In this document: positions 2,919 to 22,058 of the stretch, piece after piece
Numbering within the stretch: position 1 is the first letter of the stretch
How the letters are laid out: every line of letters begins with the position of its first letter
DNA from: Methanobacteriota archaeon
Lineage (GTDB): Archaea > Halobacteriota > Bog-38 > Methanoflorentales > Methanoflorentaceae
Direction: 5' to 3'
Length of the DNA: 64,000 nucleotides
NCBI GenBank assembly: GCA_963719035.1
Contig: CAVRAO010000002.1
Coordinates: 141,507-205,506, forward strand
Position numbers and translations under genes: made by a program
The notes under the pieces: model-generated
Database searches by the model: none
Seen by the model: the letters and a program-made list of their open reading frames with translations, nothing else
What the model was told of the DNA's origin: nothing

Positions 2919-4151
2919 TCAGCGCTCGTCGATCGCAAAACGCAGGATGGCTGCAATGCCGCCAAATGCTCGCATGAGCTGCTCCCCCTCGTTGAAGTCT
3001 GTTGAGATAAACTCTACCGAGGCTCCCGTGTCTCCTGCCCTGCGGATAAGCTCGTCGACAACATCTTCCTCGTGGGCGCGTTCCATTGCACCCTCACATT
3101 TAGGACACACGCCCGCCCCTTTTATCCCACGGATCGTCTCTTCGAGCGTGAACCCGCACAGCGGGCAACTGTTGGTCACACGCTTGATGCGAAGCGCCTC
3201 TGAGAGGAGTAGCGTATCGACGGCTCCTAGCTGAAGTGCTTTTCGTGCCTGTTTCTCGCCGTAGGTCGCCTTATTTGAATCGTGCACAAGCTCTTGGAGG
3301 AAGCGCCCTACTACGTTCTTTTCGCGTATCAAATCGAGTTCTTGGAGCACCTCGGCGCCGTTTTCCACGAGCTCTGAAAGGCCGAACTCGTCGGTATAGG
3401 ACGCGTCAAAAGCCCCGAGAATCTTTTGCTGTAGCTCGTGATGGAGGTACTCGCCGTCGACGAACTCCTCTTTAGTTGGACTTGGACCGCCTATGAGCAC
3501 CCCTTTGAGCTCTGGATGTTGAAGAAACTCGTTGTTGGCGGCCTCACCGATACGCTTGTAGAACTCGTGGATGGCTATGAGGCGCAGCCGTTCAAAACGA
3601 CGCTGCGATTGGCCGCCTTTCGTGTGTTTGCCAGGCACTCCGGACGTGAGGTGCTTGACTGGTTCGATGCGTTTGCCGTTAAGGACGCCGACCGTCGCCT
3701 CATTTCGGTCGACAACGACCAGTCCGAACACCTGTTTTTCCTTAAGCATTTCCTTGAGCGGATCAAGGTTGAATGTCGAATCACAGCGGTATTGGTAAGA
3801 CTTTATCGGTTCAATGGGCTCTACGACGAGCGTTTCCATCGTTGACTTGTCACCGCCGAGTGCGATCGTTCCCGTAAAAATCACAAGCCCGTTTGACGGC
3901 GGAAAGCGATAGTACTTGAGGCGCGACGTGATCGATGAGAGCGCGCTTTGCACGTTGGTCCGTGTGCTCTTTGATTTGATGTTTGACGCCTGTCCGTACT
4001 CGTCCTTGAGCTGGCTCACTACGTCTGAGATTTGTTTGTCAGGCGGAATATATATTGTGATAAGTTCGGTCGCTTGCCCCTTCTTGCCCTCTAAGTTCTC
4101 GATGACGCGTTTAAACTCGTAGCGCTTCAATGATTCGATTGGGTTGCTCAT
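2919..4151 (-). CDS. prf1: peptide chain release factor aRF1
   Basis: GGQ motif (KGGQSQRRFERLR), NIKS-like region and C-terminal domain. The ORF extends to 4199, but the conserved aRF1 N-terminus (MSNPIESLKRYEFKR) starts at the Met at 4149-4151. Confidence 0.85.
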   Translation of the reverse strand: MSNPIESLKRYEFKRVIENLEGKKGQATELITIYIPPDKQISDVVSQLKDEYGQASNIKSKSTRTNVQSALSSITSRLKYYRFPPSNGLVIFTGTIALGGDKSTMETLVVEPIEPIKSYQYRCDSTFNLDPLKEMLKEKQVFGLVVVDRNEATVGVLNGKRIEPVKHLTSGVPGKHTKGGQSQRRFERLRLIAIHEFYKRIGEAANNEFLQHPELKGVLIGGPSPTKEEFVDGEYLHHELQQKILGAFDASYTDEFGLSELVENGAEVLQELDLIREKNVVGRFLQELVHDSNKATYGEKQARKALQLGAVDTLLLSEALRIKRVTNSCPLCGFTLEETIRGIKGAGVCPKCEGAMERAHEEDVVDELIRRAGDTGASVEFISTDFNEGEQLMRAFGGIAAILRFAIDER

Positions 4152-4997: not shown

Positions 4998-6035
4998 ATG
5001 CGAACTGAACGTACAACTGTCGATAAGAACGTCAGCCTGCTCCACGGCGCGGGCGGCGAAATGATGAACGCTCTGATCGCCGACGTCTTGACGAAGATCA
5101 AAAACAAGAACGCCGGCGGTATTGGCTTGGAATCGTTAGATGACGGAGCTGCCATTCCGTTAGCGCAAGGTGGATTCCTCATTCTTACTACAGACACGCA
5201 TGTCGTCAAGCCCATCTTCTTTCCCGGAGGGGACATTGGACGGCTCTCTGTTTCCGGAACGGTCAACGATCTTGCGATGATGGGCGCAGCGCCTCTTGCG
5301 CTGACGAGTGCGATCGTTATGGAGGATGGGTTCGCAATCAGTGATTTACGCAAGATCGTGGCGTCAATGGACGAGGCGACCCAGGAGGTCGACACGGCGA
5401 TCGTGACGGGTGACACGAAGGTGGTGGAAAAGGGAGCACTCGATGGGATCATTATTAACACTGCAGGGATCGGCTTTGTTGAAAGTCCGGTGCGAGATTG
5501 TGGACTTGTGCCAGGTAACAAACTCATCGTCACCGGCACGATTGGTGATAATGGGATTGCTGTGCTCGCCAAGCGGGAGGACTTTCACTTTCGGACAGAA
5601 CTCCGCTCAGACGTAGCACCGATCTGGCACACTGTAAAAGCCGCTCTTGACGCGGCTGATTCGACTGCAATAACGGCTATGAAAGACCCCACGCGAGGTG
5701 GCGTCGCGAGTGCGCTTAACGACATGGCACATAAAAGCGGCGTAGAGATCCTCATTGAAGAGGAGCAGTTACCAATCAATCCTTCGATAAGGGCAGCTGC
5801 TGAGATGCTTGGCATCGATGTGCTCGAAGTGGCTAACGAGGGCAAGGCGATCATCGGCGTTGACGCAGGGAGTGCAGAAGCGGTGCTCGCTGCACTTAAA
5901 AAGACAAAGTATGGGAAGAAAGCCGCGATTATCGGCGAAGTAAATGAAGGTCAAAGAGTTCTGATGAAGACGCAGATCGGCGGAACTCGCTTTGTTGATG
6001 CACCGCTTGGCGATCCAGTGCCCCGCGTGTGTTAA
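4998..6035 (+). CDS. hypE: hydrogenase expression/formation protein HypE
   Basis: 345 aa with the PurM-like fold signature and the HypE C-terminal PRxC motif (PRVC). Confidence 0.85.
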   Translation: MRTERTTVDKNVSLLHGAGGEMMNALIADVLTKIKNKNAGGIGLESLDDGAAIPLAQGGFLILTTDTHVVKPIFFPGGDIGRLSVSGTVNDLAMMGAAPLALTSAIVMEDGFAISDLRKIVASMDEATQEVDTAIVTGDTKVVEKGALDGIIINTAGIGFVESPVRDCGLVPGNKLIVTGTIGDNGIAVLAKREDFHFRTELRSDVAPIWHTVKAALDAADSTAITAMKDPTRGGVASALNDMAHKSGVEILIEEEQLPINPSIRAAAEMLGIDVLEVANEGKAIIGVDAGSAEAVLAALKKTKYGKKAAIIGEVNEGQRVLMKTQIGGTRFVDAPLGDPVPRVC

Positions 6036-6081
6036 CTACTAACGTCTTTAAAATAGCTTCTGACGGCTTGCGCACACGCGC

Positions 6082-6190
6082 AGAAAGCTTTAATATCAAT
6101 CCCCAGCGTAGTAAGCTGTGCTGCGTCAAGCGGCCTTTACGCTTGTGCATGCCCGGGTAGTGTAGCGGCCAATCATGGAGCCCTGTCGAG
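6082..6190 (+). repeat. Direct repeat, left copy (attL-like): tRNA-Asp promoter plus 5' half of the tRNA up to the anticodon loop (tRNA fragment 6151-6190)
   Basis: agaaagctttaatatcaat...gcccgggtagtgtagcggccaatcatggagccctgtcgag matches 11727-11834 at ~95% (about 5 mismatches and 1 indel). It diverges immediately after the anticodon-loop core. Confidence 0.8.
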
Positions 6191-6215
6191 AGCCCCTCCT
6201 AATTTTGAGCCCCTT

Positions 6216-7334
6216 TTGACTACACCAGGCATTTGCGGAACTCTTAGTCCTTTTCACTTCGATTTCGTGAGTGATAAGATACGCACCATATATACTACCG
6301 ATTCAGGGAACGGTCACAGTCTTGATTCACTTCAATTGACGTTTTCGCGGGATCAACTTATCAATTACAAGAAATGGCGTATAGAAGGTCTTGATCGGAA
6401 AAGCAGCAATTGGATGAACAAGGCCGCTGAGATTGTTTGGCACGGCACGCATGGCGTAATCTGTAAGCTAACAATGGACGCGGTGCGTGACGTTGCTTTA
6501 ACCAAATACACGTGCGTTTATTCAAAACGTAAAGTGCTATGTTTTGCTAAAGGTCTCCTCAAGTATCTTGCCAAAACCACCTTCGACACTCGCTTTCAGG
6601 CATTTGAACTCTTCTTGGAGATGCCTAAGGTCCTCAAAATTCGTAAGCATGTTACAAGCCGCATTGTGACTAAGGAAGACATTGAAAATGTGCTAAAAGC
6701 GATTGAACAGGCGTTTAGCATCGGGCGTATTGATAACGCTCACTATCTAAACTACAAAGCGATAGTGTTCTTTGGCGCGTTTACGGGTCAGCGACCTTTA
6801 GCGACAATAGCAAGATTAACTGCGCGACAATTTGAGGAAGCGGTGAAAATGAAGAAACCGGTTGTTGATGTTCTCCCGTGGCAAGATAAGATTCGCATGC
6901 AGCATTATTGCCCTCTCCACCCGCAAGTCGTTGAGGCTGTAGAACCTGCGCTGGAAGTTAGATTCGATGACGAGCGTGTTTTTGAGCAACTGTCCTTTCA
7001 AGAGTGGCTTAAGTACACAGACATCCGGCTATTGCAAGGAGGCGCTCGCATTGTCAATGGAGACCTGAGGAAATTTGCAGAGCAGCAATCCGACGTACTG
7101 CAGTGGGATCAATCAAATAAGAACTACATACTAACCCACGGTGTCAGCGGGGTCGATTGGCGTTTTTACAAGCATCCGTTGCCTAAGATCGTGTATGACG
7201 TATATATGCAGTATTGGAAAGAAGTCGAGCTTTCGTGTTTAAAGTGGCCATGCTTGTTCCCGCACAACCGGCAAAAATACCATACATACCGTCATCGGCA
7301 AAAGCAAACGTTAGCCTGTGGGCTTCTTTCCTAA
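6216..7334 (+). CDS. int: tyrosine-recombinase-like integrase (putative; TTG start)
   Basis: 372 aa directly abutting attL. The C-terminal region carries candidate catalytic residues (GQRPLATIARLTARQ; LTHGVSGVDWRFY with a terminal Tyr). The assignment is mainly by position next to the tRNA att site, with only weak motif support. Confidence 0.5.
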   Translation: MTTPGICGTLSPFHFDFVSDKIRTIYTTDSGNGHSLDSLQLTFSRDQLINYKKWRIEGLDRKSSNWMNKAAEIVWHGTHGVICKLTMDAVRDVALTKYTCVYSKRKVLCFAKGLLKYLAKTTFDTRFQAFELFLEMPKVLKIRKHVTSRIVTKEDIENVLKAIEQAFSIGRIDNAHYLNYKAIVFFGAFTGQRPLATIARLTARQFEEAVKMKKPVVDVLPWQDKIRMQHYCPLHPQVVEAVEPALEVRFDDERVFEQLSFQEWLKYTDIRLLQGGARIVNGDLRKFAEQQSDVLQWDQSNKNYILTHGVSGVDWRFYKHPLPKIVYDVYMQYWKEVELSCLKWPCLFPHNRQKYHTYRHRQKQTLACGLLS

Positions 7335-7581
7335 AAATAAAAAGCCCACGGCCTTATCAAAAACGTATGTTGACGACGATATTGCCCCATGAACCCACCT
7401 GCCTGCTGAGACGATGGTAGTACTTTAAACTTAAAATTTGTGATAGCTTTTAGCAGGCGCCTATTAGCGGTCAATTCTGACCTCCGCCTCGCTGAGGCAA
7501 TCGTAAATTCATCGTTACTTTTTGCTCTACTTTTTTTGTTCTGCGAGAATGTGGAGCACAGGCTATCCCTCACTAAGCGCA

Positions 7582-8292
7582 TCAAGAGACGTGTCCAATC
7601 GGGATAATGTAAAGCGGCTGCTGGTCTGGAGGGGTCTCTAACACTTCGCGCACCATCGAGTCATCAAAGGCGCCGATCGGAACCGCTCCCAATCCCAACG
7701 ATGTACACTCGAGCAACACGTTTTGCGCTGCGTGACCAGCCTCGAGGTGGACGTAGCGCTCAGCACGTTCACCGTACTTCGTTGCGGCCCGCTCGTAGAC
7801 CCCCATAATCACAAGTTTTAACGGTGCTTGTCGTACGGCGTCCTGATTCAAAGCGGCTTTTGTCAGGTTCTCCTGCACATCCGCTGATCTGATTTTCCCG
7901 AGGCTGTGATTTAGGGGGTTGTAATGGTACACTCCTGTTACGTTCACGACATAGACTTCGAGCGGATACAGCGCGCCCGCAGACGGCACCGTTCTGAATC
8001 CTTGAGTGCTCGTGATTCCTTGAGCGGCCCAAACGAGCTGTGAGAGCTCGCTTAGTGAGATGTCAGCGTCAGTGTACTCGCGTACCGACCGCCGCTGTTG
8101 GAACGTTTCCTCTAATGACATGTTTCCTTTCAGGACTGGGTCGGGAAGCTTGATGACGTCGATGACAGCGAGGTCATGTGATACAGGCACAACTGCATCG
8201 TCGCTCTTTTGCGAGCTCAACGCCATCCACCCTATAAGAGCGGAAGCGATCACCGCAATGACCAGCGCAACGGCCAAGATTTTTTTTCGCAT
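7582..8292 (-). CDS. SagB-type dehydrogenase/nitroreductase-family protein with N-terminal signal/TM anchor
   Basis: 236 aa. N-terminus MRKKILAVALVIAVIASALIGWMALS is a hydrophobic signal/anchor. The nitroreductase-fold motifs are present (RRSVREY, ALYPLEVYVV, HLEAGHAAQNVLLECTSLGLGAVPIGAFDD). Confidence 0.7.
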   Translation of the reverse strand: MRKKILAVALVIAVIASALIGWMALSSQKSDDAVVPVSHDLAVIDVIKLPDPVLKGNMSLEETFQQRRSVREYTDADISLSELSQLVWAAQGITSTQGFRTVPSAGALYPLEVYVVNVTGVYHYNPLNHSLGKIRSADVQENLTKAALNQDAVRQAPLKLVIMGVYERAATKYGERAERYVHLEAGHAAQNVLLECTSLGLGAVPIGAFDDSMVREVLETPPDQQPLYIIPIGHVS

Positions 8293-8787
8293 CGACGTAC
8301 TCTCACGCTACACGCTTCACTTGAGAATAAGGACCTCCGCATAGTATAGAATTTATGCTTTAGCACGGCTAAGAAGAGGTGCAAAATTAGCACAAGTTAG
8401 CCCGAGTTATCCTAAACAGGTATGCAAAGCTGATAGGCAAGAACATTCATCCTCACACATTCTGGCATAAGTTTGCCATCAATAGCGTAAGGCACGGATT
8501 TGTAATACGCAGACCACCTTATGCCATTATGCTCTTCTTTCCTGGGAGCTAAGGATGTGCCTGACGACAGAACCAAATTGCCAATTAAGCCCTGGCACAT
8601 CCTCCCCCTTTGTCTAAGCAAAGACTGTGCTGACGAATTTGCGGCTGAATTTCATGAAAGAGCCAATATGTGACGGATAAGGTAGTAAGAGCAGATAAAG
8701 CTTTTTAACGACGTAAAAAGGAAAAGGAGCGCGAAACGCTCCATATTAGGAACCATTGCCGGCTTCAGTGCAGCTAAGGGTTGTGAC

Positions 8788-9081
8788 TTAAGGAAGACCC
8801 TTAATTATTGCTATTCCTTCTGCTTCTGGAAGCGCCTTCAATGTCTCTAAACTTGCCATTCCGGCGCTCGTTATCGTGAGCACTGCTTTCGCCATTGCCT
8901 CGTCGCTCGGAGCTTCAACAACTACCACCATATCATATTCCCCAAAGACAAAGTGGATTTGTTTAATCTCTCCGCCGACGGACTTGAATATCTCTTTAGC
9001 GCTTTCTATTCGTTGCGGCATGTCCTTCACTTTCTCAATTCCTGCTTGCGTAAATTTATGAAGCAAGATGTAGCTTGGCAT
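8788..9081 (-). CDS. GYD-domain protein
   Basis: 97 aa with the G-Y-D signature in FGEYDMVVVVEAPSDEAMAKAV and the characteristic ~95-aa length. Confidence 0.65.
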   Translation of the reverse strand: MPSYILLHKFTQAGIEKVKDMPQRIESAKEIFKSVGGEIKQIHFVFGEYDMVVVVEAPSDEAMAKAVLTITSAGMASLETLKALPEAEGIAIIKGLP

Positions 9082-9744
9082 TTTGATGTAGCCTCCATTT
9101 TTTTAGTAGTGAGCGTTTTGAGCGATCAGACCATTAGCGTTTGCGCTGTATTGCGCGAGAAATGTGTGCAAGAGCCGCCGTCGGAAGTGATAGAACGAGA
9201 TAAGAGCCAAGAGGTAATCGCTTCTAACTACTTCCACACCGCGCTTCCTAATCGTTTACACCCCATGTTTTACTACACTAATGCGTGCGCGACGATTGTC
9301 TCCAGGTCGATGAGCTCCTATTGCAGCTGGCGGACTACAAGAACGACTACGCGGACGTAGCCGCAGCAAAACTTTTAAAGAAGTGCTCTACCAGTTGGAA
9401 AGCCTATCGATATCTACAGGACCGCGTTCACGATGCCTGGCTGCCTGATAACGCCCGGCAGCAGGTTCGACAGATTATCAAAAAGATACAGGTGCAGATA
9501 CACCAGCAGCGCGAATACAGCTGGACGTATCAACAGCCGTGAGCGTGCAAAATAAAAGTTTTGCTAGTTTGTTAGCCATAAAACTACACGCAACAAACTG
9601 AGAGGAAGGTTCTTCAAGCAAGTATCAGCGACGAAGGCTAGGGGCACACTAAAAATTTGAGGTAAATACCCTAGTTTGGCCAAGAGTATATAAACGGCCC
9701 CTTGCCTTCGAACGTGGTTGTTATCATACGATATTTTAATACGC

Positions 9745-9762
9745 GTGACAAGTTTTTGTCAC
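9745..9762. promoter_or_regulatory. Perfect palindrome GTGACAA-gttt-TTGTCAC (operator-like site) in an intergenic region of the element
   Basis: Read directly from the sequence: 7-bp inverted-repeat arms with a 4-nt spacer, ~210 bp upstream of the small ORF at 9972. Confidence 0.3.
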
Positions 9763-9971
9763 ACATCAACGCCCGTGAAAAGTGGGCGCCCCTCTCGAAG
9801 GGTAAAGTCGACATGAAAAACTAAGGTGTAACGCTTTAAAAAATGTCTGGACCGTAGTCGCTTTTTGAAATAACGCCCAGTGTGACGTTATTATCGTCGA
9901 CAGAAAAAACCGATCACGATATTATGAGGCGTGATTCATGTACAAAGTACTGAAAACGTAGGAGGGAACAA

Positions 9972-10133
9972 ATGATTGAGAAGGGACTGATCTTAACCGG
10001 CAGCGATGCGGACGTATTGAGCAGTGCGCTTTCAGAAGTGAAAACGATAGTCTATAAAAAGGCAGGAACTCAATTAGATGATAGCCAAGCGCTCGATGCG
10101 CTCGTTTCGTATTTCCTTAATGCCGAAAGATAG
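9972..10133 (+). CDS. small hypothetical protein (53 aa)
   Basis: Strong Shine-Dalgarno GGAGGG 6 nt upstream of the ATG; MIEKGLILTGSDADVLSSALSEVKTIVYKKAGTQLDDSQALDALVSYFLNAER. Below the ORF-track size cut-off. Confidence 0.45.
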   Translation: MIEKGLILTGSDADVLSSALSEVKTIVYKKAGTQLDDSQALDALVSYFLNAER

Positions 10134-10314
10134 ACAAAAAGAGAAGTTTCACTTGTATTTTAGCCCCTTACGTAAGCGCCTGGTGCTCGGCACGATTATT
10201 GAGGGGACAGTCGTAAAGCCTGATCGTGGCCAGGAACTGCTCGATCTAAGTTAGATAGCTGGGTCATCTATGGAGTGGCATTACCTAAAAGCACGAAGTA
10301 AATGGTGACAAAAA

Positions 10315-10491
10315 ATGAACTGTGAAGAAAAACTAAAAATCCTGATGGATGCTTGTGAGAAGGCATTAATGTACGGGTGGGAAGATAACTTCAATTGGAG
10401 CAAGGATAAACCAGAAGAATTTTGGGATGAAGAAGAAGCGTGGATTGCAATAAAAGAAGCGTTTGTTAAAGTAAAAGGTGACAAAAAATGA
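10315..10491 (+). CDS. small hypothetical protein (58 aa), paralog of the next gene
   Basis: Preceded by GGTGACAAAAAATG, the same context as the next gene. MNCEEKLKILMDACEKALMYGWEDNF...VKVKGDKK. Its TGA stop overlaps the next gene's ATG (ATGA), implying translational coupling. Confidence 0.5.
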   Translation: MNCEEKLKILMDACEKALMYGWEDNFNWSKDKPEEFWDEEEAWIAIKEAFVKVKGDKK

Positions 10492-10757
10492 GTGACACAG
10501 ATAAAGAAGTCCTTAAAAAAGTATTAGAACTTTGTGAGAAAGGAATCGATCAGGCGAGAAAAGATGCAACAAATTCTGTTGGTACTGCCGAATCTTATGC
10601 GAATGGTCAAGCCGTTGCATATATGACAGTCGTTGAACTAATCATGCGTATGAAGCAAGAAGTCACTCTAGATTATAAAGAGGCGTGGGATTCTCTAGTA
10701 AACACGAAGAGCATCAAATCGATAAAAGAAGAATGGAGTGAAGGCGACAAAAAATAA
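10488..10757 (+). CDS. small hypothetical protein (89 aa), paralog of the preceding gene
   Basis: The identical upstream context GGTGACAAAAAATG, a shared CEK-helix motif and a shared ..GDKK C-terminus with the preceding ORF. AT-rich codon usage. Confidence 0.55.
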   Translation: MSDTDKEVLKKVLELCEKGIDQARKDATNSVGTAESYANGQAVAYMTVVELIMRMKQEVTLDYKEAWDSLVNTKSIKSIKEEWSEGDKK

Positions 10758-11114
10758 TAAGTGCAGCAATAACGAAAACAACGATAGCAATTACCACAAC
10801 GAAGGCGGCGGCATTCGTTTTTATAGTCAATCCTATCCTGCGTACCAGCCTCCCTGCCGATTTATGGTATTTGGACTTAAGCAGAGAGCTGGCCCCGCAT
10901 TGTTGTACAGCTAGCGCCTAGAGCAATAACGCCGTGTAGCCGCTTATTCTTCATAAATCCGTTATTCGTTTGCTGCTTGGCCACACGTGCTGACCGGGGC
11001 CTAATACAGGCTCTGACTAACTCTTTAATAAACCAGCTGCCTCCACTAGTTAAAAAACGAGTTCGGCGTCCCTGCCAAAACGAATTAATAGCAGGTCAAT
11101 TCTGGATACTGACT

Positions 11115-11507
11115 ATGGATAGTGAGGGGTCAAGAAGGAAATTCGAAAATATCGGCGATTACATCGCTACGTTTCCTAAGAATGTTCAGCACACGCTCAG
11201 GGAGCTGAGGAGTGCAATCAAAGAATCGGCGCCTGAAGCTGAAGAAACCATTAGTTATGGAATGCCCACCTTCAAGCTCAATGGTAACTTAGTACATTTT
11301 GCCGCCTATGAGAAGCATATCGGGTTCTATCCAACCCCTTCCGCCATTCTTGCTTTCAAGGAGAAATTATCCATTTATAAGCAATCAAAAGGAGCGGTTC
11401 AATTTCCAATCGATGGGCCGATTCCGTTAGATATTGTAAGGGAGATGGTCAGGTTCAGAGTAAAAGAAAATCTGACAAAAGGTGCAAGAAGGAGAAAAAA
11501 GGACTGA
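11115..11507 (+). CDS. DUF1801 (YdhG-like) domain protein
   Basis: ISYGMPTFKLNGNLVHFAAYEKHIGFYP is the DUF1801 core. The ORF opens at 10977, but the domain-sized protein (130 aa) starts at the Met at 11115. Confidence 0.6.
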   Translation: MDSEGSRRKFENIGDYIATFPKNVQHTLRELRSAIKESAPEAEETISYGMPTFKLNGNLVHFAAYEKHIGFYPTPSAILAFKEKLSIYKQSKGAVQFPIDGPIPLDIVREMVRFRVKENLTKGARRRKKD

Positions 11508-11588
11508 GACTGAGCTGACTTGTTCAAAAACGCTACTTTTATCCTCCGCTGCACTTTAACTAGAACTAACTAAACAAGAGGTGGAATA

Positions 11589-11726
11589 ATGACAGAAGAC
11601 GATAAGAACGAAATCATAAAGTGCACTGTCTCGTGCCCCGAGTGTGGTGCTGAGATGGTCTGCACGCACGAAGACCCAAAACACGAAGAGAAGCACAGGT
11701 GTGAAAAAGGCCACGTGTGGACCTGA
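11589..11726 (+). CDS. small zinc-ribbon protein (45 aa)
   Basis: GAGGTGG Shine-Dalgarno sequence upstream. MTEDDKNEIIKCTVSCPECGAEMVCTHEDPKHEEKHRCEKGHVWT has CxxC plus C/H ligands. Its stop abuts the first base of the right direct repeat. Confidence 0.45.
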   Translation: MTEDDKNEIIKCTVSCPECGAEMVCTHEDPKHEEKHRCEKGHVWT

Positions 11727-11834
11727 AGAAAGCTTTAATATCAATACACAGCTAGTAAGCTGTGCTGCGTCAAGCGGCCATTACGCTTGTGCATGCCCGG
11801 GTAGTGTAGCGGCCTATCATGGAGCCCTGTCGAG
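11727..11834 (+). repeat. Direct repeat, right copy (attR-like): tRNA-Asp promoter plus 5' half of the intact tRNA
   Basis: Matches 6082-6190 at ~95%. Confidence 0.8.
11734..11741 (+). promoter_or_regulatory. TATA-like box (TTTAATAT) upstream of tRNA-Asp, included in both direct-repeat copies
   Basis: An A/T octamer ~55 nt upstream of the tRNA 5' end. It is conserved in the left repeat copy (6089-6096). Confidence 0.3.
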
Positions 11835-11867
11835 GCTCCGACTCGGGTTCAAATCCCGACTCGGGCG
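11795..11867 (+). tRNA. tRNA-Asp (anticodon GTC)
   Basis: Manual fold. Acceptor stem GCCCGGG/CTCGGGC (one G-U pair). Anticodon stem GAGCC/GGCTC with loop CTGTCGA (GTC at positions 34-36). T-arm TCGGG-TTCAAAT-CCCGA. Discriminator G. No encoded CCA. Confidence 0.85.
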
Positions 11868-12248
11868 CTCCTTTTTTGTAATAGAGTAATCTGCAGTGTT
11901 ATTTGCTGCTAGGAATTCTAAACTGCGCTTTTCTATGTCGCTATCCTTCTTATTGCCCTTTATTTCTCGTGGTTCGCCTTTAGCGTCGCGTATATCCAAA
12001 GCTAACCTTAAAGCGCCTATCGTTTCGTCAGCACGCCTTATAATCTCGTCTTTACCCTCTAACACCGCACGCAGCCGTATTATTTCAGTATTATCCTGCT
12101 TATCAAGTGCGACAATACGACCTTCGACATAAGCAGTTAAAGCTTCAATCGTTAGGGCCGAACGGGTTACGTTATTGCTGTTCGCTCGTTCAATAACGGC
12201 TTTTAACAGCTCGGCAGGTAATGTAATAGACATACGGGATAGCGTCAT
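11817..12248 (-). CDS. ribbon-helix-helix (CopG-like) DNA-binding protein with coiled-coil tail
   Basis: N-terminal MSITLPAELLKAVIERANSNNVTRSALTIEAL is a ribbon-helix-helix signature. The C-terminal end of the ORF overlaps the 3' half of tRNA-Asp on the opposite strand, so the true C-terminus is uncertain. Confidence 0.45.
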   Translation of the reverse strand: MTLSRMSITLPAELLKAVIERANSNNVTRSALTIEALTAYVEGRIVALDKQDNTEIIRLRAVLEGKDEIIRRADETIGALRLALDIRDAKGEPREIKGNKKDSDIEKRSLEFLAANNTADYSITKKERPSRDLNPSRSLDRAP

Positions 12249-13964
12249 ACGTTCCGTATGATAATACCTTATTTAGTATTAAGCTGCCGATATCATCGCA
12301 CTCGTTCGTGTTTCTAGAAAATGTCACAAGAACTGATGGCATCAAAAAACCGGTTAAAAGTAGGTACCTGTATAGTTTTTTATAATCATAGCCGAACGGG
12401 CCGCGTGTGCGTGTTTAAACCTCGATATAACCGCCTGTTTGAAGCGATGGAATGGGCAACAGGTAACGCCGCGACTTAATCTTAATAATAGAAAAAAATC
12501 GATAAAATCCTTCTTAACTCGCGTATTGGTCCCGTCGCCTAAATATAAACCGATAGAATTCGGCGCGTGCCCTATCTGCTTAATCCTTACATTGCGGGCA
12601 TACGTTACTCGTCGTTGATACAAACTCCCAGCAATATATGCACCTATAGATGCGCTTCCAGGGTACGCCGGACGTCGTGTCCATGCGTCCCCATTTCGGA
12701 CGCGTTTTATATGCCACCGCTGCTATATTATCGCCCGCTCTCGTCGAGTTCGTTCAATAATCGCGCGTGTAGCCGCATACTTAGATATCAGTTATGTCGT
12801 TTGCATTATTCTGCGCGAGCGGCGGTAATACTGACAATAAGGGACTAAATCATTATCGCCACGCAGTTTACAATCAGCGTATTTCTCGCACTGTCGGCAG
12901 TCCATCATTTTATTCACGCCTTTTCTAGCAGCTTACCTATGTAACCGGACACCCTTATGATAGCGCAGAATCGCTAGAATAATATCATCTGGATTATCGG
13001 CGTTGATCGTGAGAGAACCGACCTTTATCGGAATTTTTTCCTTCGTCGTTTTATCGTTCATATCTATACACCATCTTAGCGCAATGCCCCCACCCTACCC
13101 TATAATTGTATTCTGACGATTTCTCCAAAAGCGTCAGCTGTACATTTGACACATGTGGCGGCGTCCGCCTCTCCATAGGCGCATTCAGAATGGAGATCGC
13201 GTAGGCAGATGTTGCTCTTCACAGTTTCAGTTAATAGTTCTTTCATTTTGTTTGACTCCCCTTTTGGTATTTTGATAGCAAGGACCTCCCTACTACCAAT
13301 AGCACCGACGACACGTCACTATGTAACCCCGCGTGACAACAACTGAGTGTCACGGTATCGACATATGCTCGCAGCTTACGCAGTAGGTCATAGTCAATAA
13401 TAGGAAAAGAAGAGTCAATTACCTACCCGGCGGGCGTATCGTGAAAGTACTAACCTGGCGGGTATCTTTCTGTACGAGAGCAATAGTAATGCAGCGTGAT
13501 GATTACGTTACGTGTTTGCGTTCCTTTACCGCTTTCGGTAGGTCAAGATATAGCTCAAACGCTTGGTATCGCGCATCAAACCGCGTCTTTGATAAGTAGC
13601 GGAAAAACGCCTTTGCGAAGTTTATTACCTTTCGCTTCGCGTAAATGTCGCTATATTTATCCAGAACGTAATTACGAAGCTCGTTTGCGGTTATCCTGCT
13701 AATTTCGCCCTTTGTATAGCGCCATAGAATATCTGCGGCCTTATTTAGCCAATTAATCGTTTTTCGCTAAGTCCTGCGATACGAAGGTTATATAATCTTT
13801 TAACTCGCTTCTCGAAAATGTCAGGTTAAGCTTATCTAGTCTGTCGCTATCGCATACGCTAGAATTAGATTGCTTTATTGAATTTTAACCATTAATAGCG
13901 TTTAATCGCCTAAATAAGCCCTGTCGAGGCTTCTGATTTTGTTCAGAGCAGACTCTTAGGAAGC

Positions 13965-14801
13965 CTAAACCTGTGGAGGGCCTCGCTCAAGCAGCTCTTG
14001 TATCCGTTGTTCTGCAGGGATTGACTGCTGCCACAACAGTTCGAAGGTGGAGGCGAGGTATTGAGCATACGTTGGGTCATCACTCCAGAGCACGCTTACC
14101 AGTTCTCTAAGCGAGGCGCGTTTTAAGTCGGCGGCATTAATCACGCTCATACCAATTTTTCCATCAAAAACGCAGAACAATAGCCCTGAGTACGTGTTAA
14201 AATGACGTACTTCCATTCCAGCGTCTAAGTGCTCTCGGATTAGCTCAATAAACGGATAAGTGACGTCAGTTATAAATCGTATCCTCCCCCCCCGGTCTAT
14301 AAACTTCTTATCGTCCTCAACAAAAAACAAGGATGAAAACACCGTCAGTATAGGGGGGACAACTGCGAACCAGTCCTTTTCAGCTGAGGCCAGGGCAGAT
14401 AGCGTTACAGTCACCACTTCTTTCATGCTCTTGAGAATTTTGTACGAGGCAATCTCACCGGCGGGCCGAAACCGCTGTTGCTCTGAGAGCTCTTGTAGCT
14501 CCTGCTTTCGCACCTCCATCTCGCGTATTTCGCTTTCGTGCCTTTTGAGCGCAGCGTCAAGAGCGGTTTCGAGGTCTACTGCTGTGTAAACCGTTGGTGT
14601 ATCGAGTGAGGGCCGCACCATACCTTTCTCGATGAGGCCGGTAAGCGTCCGGTGCACGTCCTCCCGATATGTTTTAAGAGACTTGGCGAGAGGGGAAGGG
14701 GTTTTTGGGCCGTACCTAAGCAGATGTAAGTAAAGCTGAGCCTCTTTTTCACTGAGCCCAAATTGAGTTAAACGACGGATGAACTCATCGTCCTCAGTCA
14801 T
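13965..14801 (-). CDS. TrmB-family transcriptional regulator (HTH plus C-terminal effector domain)
   Basis: N-terminal TrmB-type HTH (LSEKEAQLYLHLLRYGPKTPSPLAKSLKTYREDVHRTLTGLIEKGMV) and a conserved C-terminal motif WSDDPTYAQYLASTFELLWQQS. Confidence 0.7.
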   Translation of the reverse strand: MTEDDEFIRRLTQFGLSEKEAQLYLHLLRYGPKTPSPLAKSLKTYREDVHRTLTGLIEKGMVRPSLDTPTVYTAVDLETALDAALKRHESEIREMEVRKQELQELSEQQRFRPAGEIASYKILKSMKEVVTVTLSALASAEKDWFAVVPPILTVFSSLFFVEDDKKFIDRGGRIRFITDVTYPFIELIREHLDAGMEVRHFNTYSGLLFCVFDGKIGMSVINAADLKRASLRELVSVLWSDDPTYAQYLASTFELLWQQSIPAEQRIQELLERGPPQV

Positions 14802-15025
14802 GCGCTGCCCGGAAGGTACGTGAACTAAGCAGTAAATAAAGATTGGGTTCTGAGGTTCTGGTTAATAATAGGTGAAGTTAGGCGTTGAAAATGTGGTTTG
14901 TGAAATGGTTGGCGCGTGCCCTTCACGTTAGCTATTCATAAAAGTTGCAAAAGGGGAACCCTTAAGCCGCTAAGGTATATACACCTTTACTACATAGGTG
15001 CTCGCAGAGCACGCACTCATCTGTT

Positions 15026-15511
15026 ATGCCCCACGGATTCATAATTAACGGCGTAAAAGACGCACTTGCAGCCGCCTTAGGGATACTTGAGTCACAACAA
15101 AAAGAGGTCGCGTGGCTTGTGCCACCTTCGGTTCATTCCCTCGCAACGACCCTTGGCTTCCTTGAAGCAATGAGGGCATTTGTCAAGCGCGGCGGAGTGT
15201 CACGAGGAATAGTTGCCGTGTCGCGCGAGAACGTTGACGAGATACGAATGAGCGTAGAGAGTGGCGAGGACATTCGCCATAGTGACGCGGTGCACGAAGT
15301 CTTCATGTATGTAGGAGACAAGCAGAAGAGCGTTAGCGCGCTAAACATTGGAGTTGTGGAATTCAGGCTCGATACTCCGGTCGCTGCCTTTTGGAGTGAA
15401 GACCCCACATATATAGAGTACCTGCTCGCTGCCTTCGAGACTGTATGGGCACAGGCAATACCTGCTCAGGAGCGGATAGAGCAGTTAGAAAAAGAAAAAA
15501 AGCAGCGCTAA
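15026..15511 (+). CDS. TrmB C-terminal (effector) domain protein lacking the HTH
   Basis: 161 aa. Shares the C-terminal motif FWSEDPTYIEYLLAAFETVWAQAIPAQERIEQL with the two flanking TrmB paralogs, but has no N-terminal HTH. Confidence 0.55.
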   Translation: MPHGFIINGVKDALAAALGILESQQKEVAWLVPPSVHSLATTLGFLEAMRAFVKRGGVSRGIVAVSRENVDEIRMSVESGEDIRHSDAVHEVFMYVGDKQKSVSALNIGVVEFRLDTPVAAFWSEDPTYIEYLLAAFETVWAQAIPAQERIEQLEKEKKQR

Positions 15512-16185
15512 ACGTCATGTGCCTTTAAAGGCTCAGCTTTGTTTTTAGTCGCCGGCTGTTCTCTTGGCTCATTTAACCACACACAGAAGGCAACGTTGTC
15601 AAGCGCCTAGAACGAGTCGCTGCTTGAACTTGAGCTGCTCGAACTCGACGACAAGTTACTGCTGCTACTGCGATATGCAGAAATTACACTTCGCATAGTT
15701 TTATGACTTAAACAGTCAATTATAGGGCATCAAAAACATAACCGAAGTTGGAATAGCTACGTAAAAGCAAAAAAGCCATTATTTACGAAATAAGGGGACA
15801 TGAAGGGGATCCTGTTTTCATTATTCGATTCGACCCCGGAATACATCGTACGTCAGATGTAATCGCCGTTGGACAGATCAACCCGAGCAGCAGTTTCTAC
15901 TTTTAGAATCGGAGCCTCGCAAAGGCTCTCGCTTCTGGTCTCTGTGAGAACGCGCAAGAAAGTTTTGTGTCACGTTTTGGAAGACTACCTAGCTAGCAGC
16001 AGCGAAGCTCGCGCATAGCGCGACTGCTCGCGCAAGCAAGCAAACGATGAGCTCAAAGTCTGAACTTCAGTGTCTTTTTTGCCGTGCTGCGCGGCATCTG
16101 AGCGCCATGAGTGTGCCGAACGGGTTCTTCAAAAGATTTCAGCAAAAACTTTTTCACTTCATCGTGAGCGTACTCCTAGTACGGT

Positions 16186-17049
16186 ATGACGAGCGATGAT
16201 GAGTTTACCCTACGACTCACCGAGTTCGCATTGAGCCAGAAGGAAGCCCGGGTCTATTTTCAGTTGCTCAAATATGGGCCGCAGCCTGCAGCTGTCGTTG
16301 CAAAGCGTCTGGAGACGTATCGTGAGGACGTGCATCGAACATTGAGGCAGCTTGTTAAGAAGGGCATCGCGTGCCAATCACTGAGCAAACCAGCAGTACA
16401 CGCGGCGATGCCCCTTGAAGACGCGCTTGATGCGGCCCTGAGACAAAAAACCAGAGAACTGCGGTACAAAGAGGATGTGAAGCAAGAGCTCATCAGGCTT
16501 GCGCCGCGCGTGAGTCCCTTGCCGCTGGAAGAGTATTGCAGTTATCGGGTGGTGACTGGCTGCAATGAGTGCATCGCGGCTAGCTTGGTGCAGGCCGAAG
16601 CGGCGGTGCACGATATTTTAACGATCGGTCACCCTGCTGCGCTGGCATACTCATACAAACAAGGATTTTTCAAGACGTTTCTAGACGCAGTGGAGCACGG
16701 GGTGGAGATGCGCTTCATCCTCGACGTATCCAGTCAAGCACTTGACGCGGTTCGCGCTGCTATCGAAGGAGGGATCGACGTGCGGCATTATGAGCAGTAC
16801 CGAGGGATAATGTTCACGCTCGTTGACTCTAAGGAGAGTTTCACGGTTGTGGCGTTTGATCCGCGTTACAGTCCTAAGGACACTAAGCATACCGCATTTT
16901 TGTGCGACAACCCTAAGTACGCGCACAGACTTGCAACCCAGTTTGAGCTGGTCTGGAGACAATCGATCGACGGAACGCAGCGGGCACAAGATTTGAGGAG
17001 CGAAACTCCAGACCCCGCCTCTGACCGGTCCAGCGCGTCCACGTTGTAA
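16186..17049 (+). CDS. TrmB-family transcriptional regulator
   Basis: N-terminal HTH (LSQKEARVYFQLLKYGPQPAAVVAKRLETYREDVHRTLRQLVKKGI) and the C-terminal motif CDNPKYAHRLATQFELVWRQS. Paralog of 13965-14801, divergently oriented. Confidence 0.7.
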   Translation: MTSDDEFTLRLTEFALSQKEARVYFQLLKYGPQPAAVVAKRLETYREDVHRTLRQLVKKGIACQSLSKPAVHAAMPLEDALDAALRQKTRELRYKEDVKQELIRLAPRVSPLPLEEYCSYRVVTGCNECIAASLVQAEAAVHDILTIGHPAALAYSYKQGFFKTFLDAVEHGVEMRFILDVSSQALDAVRAAIEGGIDVRHYEQYRGIMFTLVDSKESFTVVAFDPRYSPKDTKHTAFLCDNPKYAHRLATQFELVWRQSIDGTQRAQDLRSETPDPASDRSSASTL

Positions 17050-17518
17050 AAAGTGCTTGCACGCAGCAGCAAACGTCGGCTTTAAACCGTCCGCTTGAGA
17101 ACAATAGGGTTATGTGGTGTAAGAAGTGGCAATCGCCTCACAGATTAGGTTTTCAACAGGACGTTTCCCTAATACCGCAAATAGACATTATACACGTGCT
17201 CAGGCAGCGGATGCCAATAGTTGCCACATAGGTTCTTACGTCGGAGCCTGTGTTAGGCTCCGGCTATCGTACAGAAGAAATAAATGAAGCTCGGCTATGT
17301 GTAATTCGAGCGCTTTAAAGCACGGGCGCGGTTATATTCAGTCCCATGTTTGACAGGGCCGTCTGCAGGCTGAATCATACTATAAAATTAACTTAAAAAG
17401 AAGAGAAACAAGCGGCCTCATATGCTATTGTTCACCTTACCTTAGCATGCTTTGTTCGATTGCAGTGCTGCCGCGTAGGGTCGAACGCGAAAAAGAAGAG
17501 GAACGGTTAAGCTAACAC

Positions 17519-17839
17519 GTGTGCTGCTTGCATAAGCGTATGCAATTTCGACTGGTAGTTATCGGACTCATCGTGTTGGTTATAATCGGGTTCGTAGTTT
17601 TTGTTGCAGGTTCAGTTGTCATAGGCGTAGATATGGCTATATATCCGGCGTGGATGTGGATCATTTCCCTCGTTGTCATCATTTTCCTTACCGCCATTAT
17701 CGCCGTGCTACTGGTAGGATGGCAGGATTCCCATTACGACGAGGACGCGCCTGACGAAGAACGCTACTATCGGGACCGCCGCCGCTGCGTTGCATGTAAC
17801 AGCTCTATATTAGGCAATATGCTATCCTACTTGTGCTAG
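17519..17839 (+). CDS. small membrane protein (hypothetical)
   Basis: Two or three predicted TM helices (LVVIGLIVLVIIGFVVFVAG; IISLVVIIFLTAIIAVLLVGW). The start is uncertain (alternative Met at 17540). Confidence 0.3.
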   Translation: MCCLHKRMQFRLVVIGLIVLVIIGFVVFVAGSVVIGVDMAIYPAWMWIISLVVIIFLTAIIAVLLVGWQDSHYDEDAPDEERYYRDRRRCVACNSSILGNMLSYLC

Positions 17840-18228
17840 TTTTTGGACAATCAGGGGATGTGCCTGAGCTTAATTGGCAATTTGGAGACTATTGTCAGGT
17901 ATATCCTTAGCTTTCGGGAAGCAAAACATAGGGTCGTAATGCGCTGCAGTAATATGAGGGTTGATCAAATGCCAATTGACATCAGTTGAGCCCATCACGC
18001 GGAAACCCACACTTTTACCGCAGCCCCTTACGCCTGCTTTGTATCTCTCAATTCTTAAAATGTAAATTTAAGGAGCAAAGAGCTGACGCTATTTGATAAA
18101 ATAACGCTTTAAAGGCAATGTTCTCTTATTAACTACAGGTGTGTGCTGGACGGTAGCTGGACAGTATAAACTACATACCATCCACACGTGCTTTTTGATA
18201 GAAAAAAGAAAAGGGGGCAAAGCCCCTA

Positions 18229-18744
18229 CTATGCCTTCACTACGACGGTGTGCGCTGCGCGGTCTCCAGTCCGCTGTCTCTTATCTGACGTCCAAATAAG
18301 AATTGCACCGAGCAAGAACGGAATAATGAACGGTATTGCGTCGATGATCAGCAGTAAGGAACGCACGAGTGCATCGACATAGCCAATCTTTGAACCATCC
18401 TCTTTGACCACTTTAATCTTAAGGGCCATCATGCCTACCGTCTGTCCATACGCTCCCAAGAGGAGCGTGAAATAGATGAGCACGATGAGTGATGATATGA
18501 CGCTGCCAAGTCCTGCGAGCGAATTCGCTGTGGTGGATACGTAAAAGCTTCCATTAGTAAAATTCGCGCTATTAAAGACGGGCGTTTGCAACGGATTGGC
18601 GAAAACTGACGCAATAATGCCCGCAATAATGACATCGATAAGAAGAGCTACGAATCTGACACCGACGCTACGGTACTGCAGCGGTGCTGGAGTCATTTCT
18701 GGAGCTGCGGCCATTTCAGGCGTTGGGGTCATTTCATTTGCCAT
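18229..18744 (-). CDS. RDD-family membrane protein
   Basis: Three TM segments and the R-D-D signature (DKRQRTGDRAAHTVVV). Pro/Met/Thr-rich N-terminal tail. Confidence 0.65.
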   Translation of the reverse strand: MANEMTPTPEMAAAPEMTPAPLQYRSVGVRFVALLIDVIIAGIIASVFANPLQTPVFNSANFTNGSFYVSTTANSLAGLGSVISSLIVLIYFTLLLGAYGQTVGMMALKIKVVKEDGSKIGYVDALVRSLLLIIDAIPFIIPFLLGAILIWTSDKRQRTGDRAAHTVVVKA

Positions 18745-19104
18745 TCGTTCACCTCCTTGTGGCTTTGTTGCCTAATTGTGTGTTTGGTAGGTAAAAACCT
18801 ATGGATGGGATACGGTACCTGAACGAGTGTCCGTTCTTTTCAAATTTTGATAACGAAGAGAAGGGCACCGCGGAGCTAGGCTTTGCGACTATCTGTGCCC
18901 CCTTGCCTTTCGATAATCGTACCTAGCACCAGGCGCTTACGTAGGGGGCTAAAATACGAGTGACGTAGTCCTTTTTCCTACCCAACATTCACAGCGCTTC
19001 TGAAGCACGAAACGAGCTCATCGAGTGCCTGCGCATCCCCAGGCTAGCTTTATGCTCGAGAAGTACTGTAAGAAACAGGTTACGGAAGCTGAGGAACATA
19101 TGAA

Positions 19105-19608: not shown

Positions 19609-19841
19609 AAGGATCTGTCAACTCTTTAACAAGGCGTCTGCTGCCACCGGAGGGCATCTGTTGTTTCTGCTACGGTAGGGGCGTTGGTCGTAGCCTGTAT
19701 TAGGCTCCGGTTGCTGTGTTGAATTAGTTCGTCAGAGCGTTCAGAAATAGGTCGGAGCTCAATAGGCCTCCACTGACGTGGAATTTTGCAAATAGTCTGA
19801 AAGAAAAAACATAATGTAAACTAAATTACGAGATTATTCTG

Positions 19842-21548: not shown

Positions 21549-22058
21549 GGCGATCAGAAGATGGGGCTCTGGCGGAGCATGTCCATGTCGGTGACGTAGC
21601 GAGCTGCCTCTCCACGATGAGGTCTTGCCTGCCCTTCAGCTGCAGCAGGACCGCCTGAGGAAGCTCTGGGATTCATTCTATAAGTTGCTTAAATCTCACT
21701 TCTGCCCAATACTGCATATAAACATCATAGACGTTTTCAGGCAACGGATGTTTATAATGCTTCCAATCGATTCCACTCACTCCGTGCGTCATAATATACG
21801 CTCGGTTTGAATGATCTCACTGAATACCGTCGCCATATTGTTCGTATCTTAGCGACTTTTAGCAGTTACAAAGCTTTATCGTAGTTCGTAGTGATTTACT
21901 ATGGCTGCTAAGCATGCCACAGCCGACACGGCATGCTGCGAGTTCATAAGCTATTCATTTTTGTGTAGGGCTTCCCTACGGGTGATCCCCGTAGCCTGTC
22001 GCGCTTGCGCTGAGGCGGGCATGCAATTCTCAAAAAGAGATAAGGAGGCGAAGCTAAG

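Follow-up and report, generated by a model that had tools for sequence, protein, structure and literature searches.

A probable deletion-reduced integrative element and its intact relative on opposite sides of an archaeal tRNA-Asp gene

tRNA genes are classic integration sites, and in nearly all known cases it is the 3' part of the gene that is replaced. Reconstituted tRNA genes, flanking direct repeats, integrase decay and multiple or tandem occupancy of a single tRNA gene are all documented (PMC8371274). The locus addressed here is a tRNA-Asp gene in a 64-kb stretch of a Methanoflorentaceae genome (assembly GCA_963719035.1, contig CAVRAO010000002.1, positions 141,507 to 205,506), hereafter called the window. 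An intact element, E1, lies on its left side and an eroded element, E2, on its right side. Taken as a whole, the data make it highly probable that E2 (11838–13931, ~2.1 kb) is the deletion-reduced remnant of an integrative element that entered at the tRNA-Asp gene and that belonged to clade B of a divergent integrase family found in peat-soil methanogen-related archaea.

Two described archaeal systems come closest. The pT26-2-type integrative plasmids of Thermococcales, which carry 'suicidal' integrases of the SSV family (Badel et al. 2020, PMC7253208), possess an attachment (att) site that starts just upstream of the anticodon and extends a few nt beyond the tRNA gene's 3' end, their integrase gene (int) is antiparallel to the tRNA gene, and the element restores the 3' part of the tRNA. 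Clade B, and hence E2, displays the same organization, with an att span of ~46–62 nt compared with 51 bp in pT26-2 (PMC7253208). However, it shows no detectable sequence relationship with these plasmids (no Pfam, NCBIfam or PDB-profile match), its hosts are mesophilic peat archaea, and the inclusion of att within int is less consistent, the fold starting after att and some members having a stop codon in between. The second system includes the pTN3/TKV4-like integrases (Cossu et al. 2017), which use a tRNA gene's 5' half as their attB site, a specificity that a 2021 review describes as 'unique in archaea' and rare in bacteria, archaeal 5'-half targeting being given there only for pTN3-like integrases (PMC8371274). 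Clade A, to which E1 belongs, shares with them the 5'-half attB and the expression of the recombinant tRNA from an element-borne upstream sequence (PMC8371274). It differs from them in that the promoter region of the tRNA itself (the 68 nt upstream of the gene, 6082–6150 and 11727–11794) is present as a copy on E1, in that the family is unrelated by sequence, and in that a sister clade attacks the same loop from the 3' side.

Islands and prophages of the anticodon-loop sublocation (Williams 2002; Campbell 2003) recombine within the 7-nt loop flanked by the symmetric stem, according to the review, which also covers the loss of integrase genes after integration (PMC8371274). Unlike these classical islands, the locus examined here has both sides of the tRNA gene occupied by elements with sister integrases and mirror-image attP sites, and both halves of the working gene are probably element-derived. 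Integrated archaeal elements are also said to become fixed in the chromosome by decay, through loss of the integrase or of the att partner, in cases reportedly described by She et al. between 2001 and 2004. E2 resembles such captured elements in what it retains, i.e. a gene for a protein of ribbon-helix-helix (RHH) type and small open reading frames (ORFs), but its fixation would stem from a truncated int and the disappearance of the displaced tRNA half rather than from partition of the integrase gene.

A limited search of the literature found no sequence-divergent integrase family of this sort devoid of a curated model, no combination of mirror-image and third att geometries among sister clades acting on one tRNA, and no tRNA gene flanked on both sides with both halves element-borne. 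The general phenomenon is known, and what is new is the mirrored geometry within one unannotated integrase family, together with a tRNA apparently rebuilt from element-borne halves. A broader proposition, to which we would give an even chance, is that a single family diversified into mirror-image and third geometries on the quasi-palindromic anticodon arm of tRNA-Asp, leaving an essential tRNA wholly element-borne and a host dependent on a remnant.

A probable eroded element on the 3' side of the tRNA-Asp gene

The 15-nt core AGCCCTGTCGAGGCT spans the 7-nt anticodon loop CTGTCGA together with four stem bases on its 5' side and four on its 3' side. This 15-mer is found exactly twice in the window, both times on the plus strand: in the anticodon arm of the working tRNA-Asp gene and at 13917–13931 (Table 1). 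A left copy at 6179–6193 deviates in its final three bases (gagagc instead of gaggct), AGCCCTGTCGAG being common to all three sites. The exact recurrence and the gaggct ending had been pointed out in a preliminary description of this DNA, and its chance expectation of ~1e-4 agrees with our own figure of ~1.2e-4, obtained by arithmetic for 2 x 64 kb. An Rfam scan of 11500–14300 returned the tRNA only. The window holds no other copy of the tRNA 3' half within 3 mismatches of 23 nt, and an inverted near-match at 15906–15928 does not extend into tRNA sequence.

The second copy lies just downstream of the stop codon of a convergent TrmB-family gene, and it reads on the minus strand as a 4-bp stem and a 7-nt loop followed by TATTT, without any tRNA likeness past the 15 nt. 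It could thus be a chance match or a hairpin terminator in a tract of ordinary intergenic or native DNA. This explanation is almost certainly wrong, given the low expectation, the integrase pseudogene that abuts the 15-mer and the exact occurrence of the 24-nt junction in 25 other loci, beside integrases. The second copy is not a chance match.

A tblastn search of the window with the 372-aa integrase of E1 revealed the pseudogene on the minus strand (13766–13485, aa 61–152, 53% identity, E=4e-28); it also matches the clade-B homologue P0064 (tblastn, E=7e-46). It begins ~17 nt inside the second core, is directed toward the tRNA gene and is interrupted by a frameshift near 13770 and a stop codon at ~13505. 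Beyond the frameshift, the upstream homology resumes ('...NSIKQSNSSVCDSDRLDKLNLTFSRSELKDY...'), and frame translations read 'SLDRAYLGD' across the core itself. Homology to all fetched integrases has sharp limits, at 13506/13507 on one side and at 13931 on the other, L104 being 84.7% identical in nucleotide sequence to the window from 13507 to 13931. In a neighbour-joining tree, the fragment nests within clade B beside P0064, P0071 and P0081, with 62–86% aa identity to clade B versus 52–56% to clades A and C.

The core is preceded at this end by an integrase-proximal arm, GCCTAAATA. In L001–L003, the tRNA sense strand upstream of the clade-B int reads ...CGCCTAAATA-AGCCCTGTCGAGGCT-CCGACTCGGGTTCAAATCCCGACTCGGGCGC-TCCTTTTTTG..., and the exact 24-mer made of arm and core, GCCTAAATAAGCCCTGTCGAGGCT, was found in JGI metagenomes at 22 further loci, in roughly a dozen distinct contexts. 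The junction adjoins a clade-B integrase in all 25 loci, and the core is followed by the tRNA-Asp 3' half (0–4 mismatches) in 23 of them; L091 and L102, like the window, diverge from the tRNA 2 and 6 nt past the core. L097 carries a complete integrated clade-B element, in which the tRNA-Asp gene (2929–3002) is followed by 7.6 kb of cargo and by int on the opposite strand, and the far end consists of the arm, the core, the 3' half and the same trailer. The resulting direct repeat is ~62 nt long, with 2 mismatches.

At the tRNA-proximal end, window 11823–11917, which covers the core, the 3' half, the T-run and the RHH-like gene at its 3' end, shares 88% identity with L001 8378–8284, and the latter runs through the core into the clade-B arm and int. 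L001 therefore displays an attP-like join, in which int, arm, core and 3' half are followed by a trailer and arm homologous to window 11869–11917; the trailer and arm of 11838–11917 are also present in L106 and L109. The 143-aa RHH-like ORF, already described as a minus-strand ORF overlapping the tRNA 3' end, has no stop codon of its own and reads through the antisense 3' half, ~50 nt into the tRNA gene. Among its 51 homologues, 21 end in '...KK(E/K)RPSRDLNPSRSLDRAP', which corresponds to the same integrated configuration inside tRNA-Asp, and the C-terminus of P0168 ('...SLDRAYLGD') corresponds to the unrecombined junction. A second family (P0162–P0171), the N-terminus of which reads as AbrB-like from its sequence alone, shares this att-overlapping C-terminus. 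The RHH assignment is provisional, being suggested by models that all score below their cut-offs (RHH_5, E=0.023; RHH_1, E=0.049; NCBIfam YlcI/YnfO N-domain, E=4e-4) and by the CopG/Arc/MetJ regulator names given by JGI to several homologues. As the RHH/AbrB-type end and the integrase end are contiguous through an attP-like junction in L001/P0039 and in P0168, the two ends of the tract appear to be the two halves of a clade-B attP, split by integration into tRNA-Asp.

Between 12249 and 13964, no ORF exceeds 93 aa. The tract is collinear with the int, o41-like, o42, o45 and RHH genes of a 6.8-kb element in L109, the three largest shared blocks showing 80.6%, 68.6% and 80.5% nucleotide identity (the second being the region of the 45-aa ORF, over 338 nt). 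This collinearity indicates that the 12.2–13.9 kb tract is probably a deletion derivative rather than junk. Its 41-aa Cys-rich ORF belongs to a family of ~35–40 aa proteins, MM(D/N)C.RCEKY..C.LRGD...VPYC..YRRPR, in which the start, the stop and four Cys are conserved; copies of this small protein are multiple in related elements, with four in L001 and two each in L097, L094, L092, L100, L107 and L109. A 48-aa ORF (13100–13246) has no homologue in any fetched locus, and its coding status is unsupported. Altogether, the positions and the repeat given in the preliminary description stand, and the mobile-element debris suspected in 12250–13960 does exist, in the form of an integrase fragment of the same family beside the core. 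On the other hand, 'almost no credible ORFs' and uniform decay do not describe this tract, which contains the integrase fragment, at least three conserved small minus-strand ORFs and an intact RHH-like gene.

Table 1. Positions and strands of the features described at the tRNA-Asp locus (window coordinates)
Feature	Position	Strand	Basis
Displaced chromosomal tRNA-Asp promoter and 5' half, ending after the anticodon loop; attL of E1	6082–6190	+	Direct repeat with 11727–11834
Intact clade-A integrase of E1, 372 aa, divergent tyrosine recombinase (predicted)	6216–7334	+	Homologues, AF2/Foldseek, neighbour-joining tree
E1-borne tRNA promoter and 5' half through the anticodon loop; 5' part of the working tRNA-Asp gene (probable)	11727–11837	+	Direct repeat; clade-A read-through
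tRNA-Asp(GTC), working gene	11795–11868	+	ARAGORN, Rfam
RHH-like (CopG-like) and coiled-coil gene of E2, 143 aa	11817–12248	-	Sub-threshold models, homologues
Core copy 1, anticodon arm of the working tRNA-Asp gene; attL core of E2	11823–11837	+	Exact 15-mer
tRNA 3' half, T-run trailer and distal (P') arm of E2, probably element-borne	11838–11917	+	Homology to L001, L106, L109
Conserved 45-aa zinc-ribbon-like ORF	12580–12717	-	82% aa identity to L109 3674–3805; weak DZR match
Conserved 41-aa Cys-rich ORF, multi-copy in these elements	12792–12917	-	Homologues in related elements
Conserved 42-aa ORF	12933–13061	-	80.6% nt, 60% aa identity to L109 2912–3040
Remnant start of a second Cys-rich ORF, 36-nt scrap	13358–13392	-	91.7% nt identity to L109 2676–2711
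5' fragment of clade-B integrase pseudogene, ~aa 20–148	13507–13900	-	tblastn, frame translations, neighbour-joining tree
Integrase-proximal arm and 15-nt core; attR of E2	13908–13931	+	Exact 24-mer in other loci
Sequence in place of the displaced tRNA 3' half	13932–13964		Same junction in L106
TrmB-family regulator abutting the core, not part of E2	13965–14801	-	Pfam TrmB; 96% aa identity to L106
Integrase C-terminal remnant with stops	17109–17219	-	tblastn
Integrase C-terminal remnant with stop	21682–21843	-	tblastn

An integrase family with three attachment geometries

The E1 integrase has 637 homologues at E<=0.001, which mostly originate from peat or soil metagenome-assembled genomes named 'Halobacteriota/Methanomicrobia archaeon'. 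No Pfam domain is recorded for any of them, and the window integrase itself gives no Pfam match at E<0.01, no NCBIfam match and no match in a PDB profile search; P0064 shows against NCBIfam only a sub-threshold match to the XerA N-domain (19 bits versus a cut-off of 220). Globally, Pfam, PHROGs, NCBIfam and PDB profiles returned nothing decisive for the integrase or for the small ORFs. The integrase has no tblastn match among the INPHARED phages and the PLSDB plasmids, and IMG/VR contains neither the exact junction nor relatives of the integrase.

A structural model was computed with AlphaFold2 (AF2) from an alignment of 23 sequences (A3). Its mean predicted local distance difference test score (pLDDT) is 73, with folded blocks at 87–96; it is confident across residues 40–290, residues 1–34 are unstructured and the fold thus begins after att. 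In a Foldseek search of the PDB, the best 41 matches are all tyrosine recombinases, namely Cre, Tn1549 Int, lambda Int, XerH, Flp and Phi3T SroF, with probabilities of up to 1.00 and E-values of ~1e-4. Global TM-scores are low (0.25–0.36), as expected since the two domains are placed differently. The model supports an assignment of the family to the tyrosine recombinases, with a predicted two-domain fold consisting of a helical core-binding domain and a catalytic domain. R193 (GQRP), D224-K225, R285 (DLRK) and Y318 are invariant in the 23 sequences and H308 is nearly so, and the resemblance of these motifs to known ones suggests R/K/R/H/Y catalytic roles.

As gene callers often extend these ORFs upstream, the DNA that precedes int can be read from the N-termini of the annotated proteins. 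In clade A (the window integrase, P0003, P0006, P0009 and others), these N-termini read '...AESFIINTQLVSCAAS..SPGSVAAYHGALS', i.e. the sense tRNA-Asp promoter and 5' half. In clade B (P0035, P0039, P0064, P0071, P0081, P0091), they read '(KKERPSRD)LNPSRSLDRAYLGD', i.e. the antisense 3' half. In clade C, a complete tRNA-Asp is followed ~100 nt further on by int on the same strand (L006, L008, L009). The att geometry tracks phylogeny in the neighbour-joining tree, save for one outlying B lineage (L001/P0039). Loci with the clade-C geometry, in which a complete tRNA-Asp or just its 3' half precedes int by this distance, are L006 10333–11408, L008 17701–18776, L009 1435–2553, L109 1–1048 and L002 7021–7950.

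Many integrase ORFs are called open across att; in P0039 (L001 8001–9350), the upstream gene, att and int even form one 449-aa ORF. A stop codon occurs just after the core in P0168 and in the reconstructed window junction, and the clade-C int begins downstream of the tRNA gene. A reading of the family as SSV-type integrases, whose int is split into Int(N) and Int(C) on integration because attP lies within the ORF, is possible, but the resemblance is not consistent across members. In the window, frames are open across att at 6036–6216 and 11644–11889, the clade-A frame spanning the tRNA promoter and 5' half. In L002 (958–5304 and 9152–10646) and also in L003, two back-to-back integrases of clades B and C are flanked by a gene encoding a 1448-aa protein with Toprim and family-A DNA polymerase regions and by an AbiEi/AbiEii pair; this is a candidate replication module for a free form of these elements.

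E1 illustrates the clade-A geometry. The two copies of its direct repeat differ by one D-loop mismatch, at 6172, and the clade-A homologues read the same promoter and 5'-half sequence upstream of int (SPGSVAAYHGALS). The synteny that starts at HypE continues into the left repeat (6082–6190) in L004, L005 and L008, and the sequence upstream of the left copy matches the tRNA promoter of a sister genome, L106, better than that of the right copy does. It follows that 6082–6190 is the ancestral chromosomal promoter and 5' half, and 11727–11834 the copy brought by E1. The HypE gene itself (4998–6035, upstream of the tRNA gene) is annotated merely as AIR-synthase-related; it lies beside HypA and HypC in L106. 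The E1 integrase ORF overruns the end of its homologues by ~30 codons (7233–7334, ...YMQYWKEVEL followed by SCLKWPCLFPHNRQKYHTYRHRQKQTLACGLLS), which suggests a lost stop codon.

These geometries bear on the proposal that the tRNA-Asp gene carries tandem elements, the core at 13917 being a third copy of the left att. Head-to-tail arrays at tRNA genes are indeed known in archaea (PMC8371274), and AGCCCTGTCGAG is common to the three sites. However, an array of clade-A elements grows to the left of the working tRNA gene, by units made of a 5' half, a core and int on the plus strand, whereas the pseudogene lies on the minus strand and belongs to clade B, and its core is preceded by the clade-B arm and not by a tRNA 5' half. 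A tandem array of same-type elements using the left att is thus very improbable. The core at 13917 is the integrase-proximal junction of a different integrase clade, and E1 and E2, which lie on opposite sides of the tRNA gene with mirror-image attachment sites, do not form the tandem that had been proposed. The other elements of the proposal fared better. The integrase pseudogene inside the far core and the joining of both ends in L001 bear out a second integrated element, and its heavy erosion is evident from an int truncated, with a frameshift and a stop, from the deleted interior and from the lost 3' half.

Relative age, proposed history and mechanism

The contig L106 (174 kb) has a HypE region 96.8% identical in nucleotide sequence to that of the window. 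Its tRNA-Asp gene is followed by the same RHH-like gene (88.6% nucleotide identity) and then by 6.4 kb of unrelated cargo. It also shares the truncated int fragment, the arm, the core and the adjoining 278-aa TrmB gene (window 13505–14981 and L106, reverse complement, 16859–18364, 89.7% identity), with the same non-tRNA sequence after the core. Furthermore, L106 contains no clade-A integrase and no copy of the left element. As L106 shares the eroded element and its junction without the left element, the E2 remnant predates the split between the two genomes and E1 arrived after it, in agreement with the earlier suggestion that the right-hand element is the older.

Divergence differs between genes. 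For HypE, dS is 0.10 and dN/dS 0.115. The 278-aa TrmB gene (dS 0.147, dN/dS 0.118) has the behaviour of a functional gene inherited vertically, and the int fragment, with 78% identity and 35 gap columns, that of a pseudogene. The RHH-like gene (dS 0.32, dN/dS 0.25) appears intact and constrained by purifying selection, yet unusually diverged.

Element DNA was found at tRNA-Asp in every relative examined, which confirms that this gene is an integration hotspot: its 3' side carries a clade-C integrase in L006, L008 and L009 and the same E2 remnant in L106, and no relative examined has this side unoccupied. In L106, a decayed tRNA-Asp copy, in which a D-arm piece is followed by a 39-nt insertion, the core and the 3' half, lies past the TrmB gene, 1.6 kb rightward of the E2 core. 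Such a copy would fit a clade-A element, carrying the TrmB gene, that once inserted at the E2 core.

The following history can be proposed. In the free form of a clade-B element, read along the tRNA sense strand, att would comprise int pointing away, the arm GCCTAAATA, AGCCCTGTCGAGGCT, the remainder of the tRNA-Asp 3' half, the T-run and then an arm that overlaps the RHH-like gene at its 3' end. Recombination within or beside the 7-nt anticodon loop of the chromosomal tRNA-Asp gene would place the element downstream of the crossover, so that the tRNA gene would keep its own 5' half and gain the 3' half and terminator of the element. In the integrated form, the RHH-like gene would read antisense into the tRNA gene, and int would lie at the far end, beside the arm, the core and the displaced chromosomal 3' half. 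The decay of E2 would then have involved the loss of int beyond ~aa 148, the deletion of ~4–5 kb of the interior and the loss of the displaced 3' half, probably in this order, leaving the arm and the 15-nt core alone against the TrmB gene. Later, after the sister strains had split, the clade-A element E1 (6191–11834) would have entered the same anticodon loop from the other side, bringing its own tRNA promoter and 5' half and pushing the chromosomal copy to 6082–6190.

The region of identity of clade A ends with ...GTCGAG (6190/11834) and that of clade B begins with AGCC, the two overlapping in AGCCCTGTCGAG; each holds the whole 7-nt loop and one or more flanking bases. SSV1 Int and classical integrases cleave at the edges of the anticodon loop (PMC8371274) and, by analogy, both clades probably exchange strands in CTGTCGA while carrying opposite arms. 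Clade A would then replace everything 5' of the loop, including the promoter, and clade B everything 3' of it, including the terminator, E1 and E2 flanking tRNA-Asp as mirror images. The working tRNA-Asp gene would be entirely supplied by elements, with an E1-borne promoter and 5' half and an E2-borne 3' half. As the displaced chromosomal 3' half is gone, the tRNA would be left truncated if E2 were excised precisely.

Several observations weigh against this account. The direct repeat that bounds E2 is just 15 nt long, because the expected displaced 3' half, which extends the repeat of L097 to ~62 nt, is absent. The alignment of the tRNA gene with the right end upheld the 15-nt identity and nothing further, the next 33 nt being unlike the tRNA 3' half in local and in-register alignments against shuffled sequences and random window segments (p~0.2). 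Divergence from L106 is greater for the RHH-like gene and the int fragment than for the core gene HypE, and the two ends of E2 may therefore not be strictly orthologous to those of L106 or may have been swapped by recombination. As the interiors from the RHH-like gene to int are unrelated in the two genomes, the origin of the RHH end and the integrase end in a single insertion is not proven. L109 joins the same cargo and RHH end to a clade-C integrase and inverted tRNA pieces, which indicates that modules are shuffled and that rearrangements occur. Finally, all the loci are metagenome assemblies, and no free circle, excision junction or biochemical activity was observed.

These points lead to the possibility that the tract was put in place by rearrangement, for example by inversion or recombination between att cores that joined the RHH end and the integrase end of different elements. 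A related version, in which a clade-A element's core was the site where E2 either inserted or was itself invaded, would explain the missing 3' half, and the decayed, near-complete tRNA-Asp of L106 is the leftover expected from a clade-A insertion at the core. The RHH and cargo end bounded in L109 by inverted tRNA pieces and a clade-C integrase, interiors wholly different between the window and L106, an RHH dS three times that of HypE and the inversion documented in vitro for archaeal integrases (PMC7253208) would all fit such an event. Nevertheless, the pairing of the RHH end with the integrase end is intact in L001, a simple model needs deletions only (L091 and L102 show them at other break points), and what follows the core shows no significant likeness to clade-A arms (p=0.24). 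A rearranged origin is thus unlikely, and reduction by deletion of a single clade-B element remains the preferred account. In the latter, the 3' half may have been lost either by simple deletion or by nested integration. A remnant of the clade-A integrase-proximal arm was sought after the core and rejected (CTTCTGATTTTG versus CTCCTAATTTTG, not significant with the p value above), and E2 abutting a clade-A attL is retained as a hypothesis.

If this history is correct, elements accrete on both sides of a tRNA gene and, once the chromosomal halves have decayed, excision of an old element destroys the tRNA. The family, abundant in metagenome-assembled genomes of peat-soil archaea, contains sister clades that use both geometries on one tRNA, and it would offer a natural system for the study of the flip of att orientation and arm architecture around a symmetric core, of the bidirectional growth of islands from one tRNA gene and of the irreversible fixation of remnants. 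The 24-nt junction and the N-terminal read-through peptides can serve as markers for the annotation of these elements.

Other remnants around the island

Integrase remnants are nearly always limited to the last 25–60 codons, with ~13 C-terminal scraps versus 1–2 N-terminal ones, often ~1.5 kb apart on one strand. Besides the two scraps of the window (Table 1), they were found in L009 (2989–3056, 3847–3914, 5253–5281), L004 (14960–18007), L008 (11282–14832) and L107/L108. Random deletion does not explain such a strong bias; att-anchored deletions or a recombination site near the 3' end of int are possible causes.

A hairpin, GGAGCC-TGTGTTA-GGCTCC (window 17229–17263; 17243–17261), the stem of which is that of the tRNA-Asp anticodon arm with a different loop, abuts the integrase scrap at 17.1 kb, and both are conserved together in L007 (7041–7127, 87% nucleotide identity). 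Related copies of the hairpin lie inside E1 (10993–11021) and at 19676–19710. In addition, E1 blocks 8539–8602, 10086–10202 and 10993–11021 have inverted counterparts at 17856–17920, 18910–19031 and 19683–19711 (78–93% complementary), which stand in a different block order. This similarity points to debris of a related element at 17.8–19.7 kb, probably inserted in the opposite orientation.

Remnants of tRNA-Asp devoid of the 5' acceptor strand occur in two different genomes, in L106 (reverse complement, 18877–18990) and in L109 (6783–6900, minus strand). Both carry a GC-rich hairpin insertion of 39–51 nt between the D-arm (..GTAGCGGCCTATCATG) and the anticodon stem and could be decayed duplicates, cases of an unusual intron position or another att arm.

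The region 13965–17049 contains three TrmB-related genes, encoding proteins of 278 aa (minus strand), 161 aa (15026–15511, plus strand) and 287 aa (16186–17049, plus strand), the 161-aa protein corresponding to the C-terminal domain alone. Homologues of the genes of this cluster are present in the tRNA-Asp islands of L004, L089 and L090.

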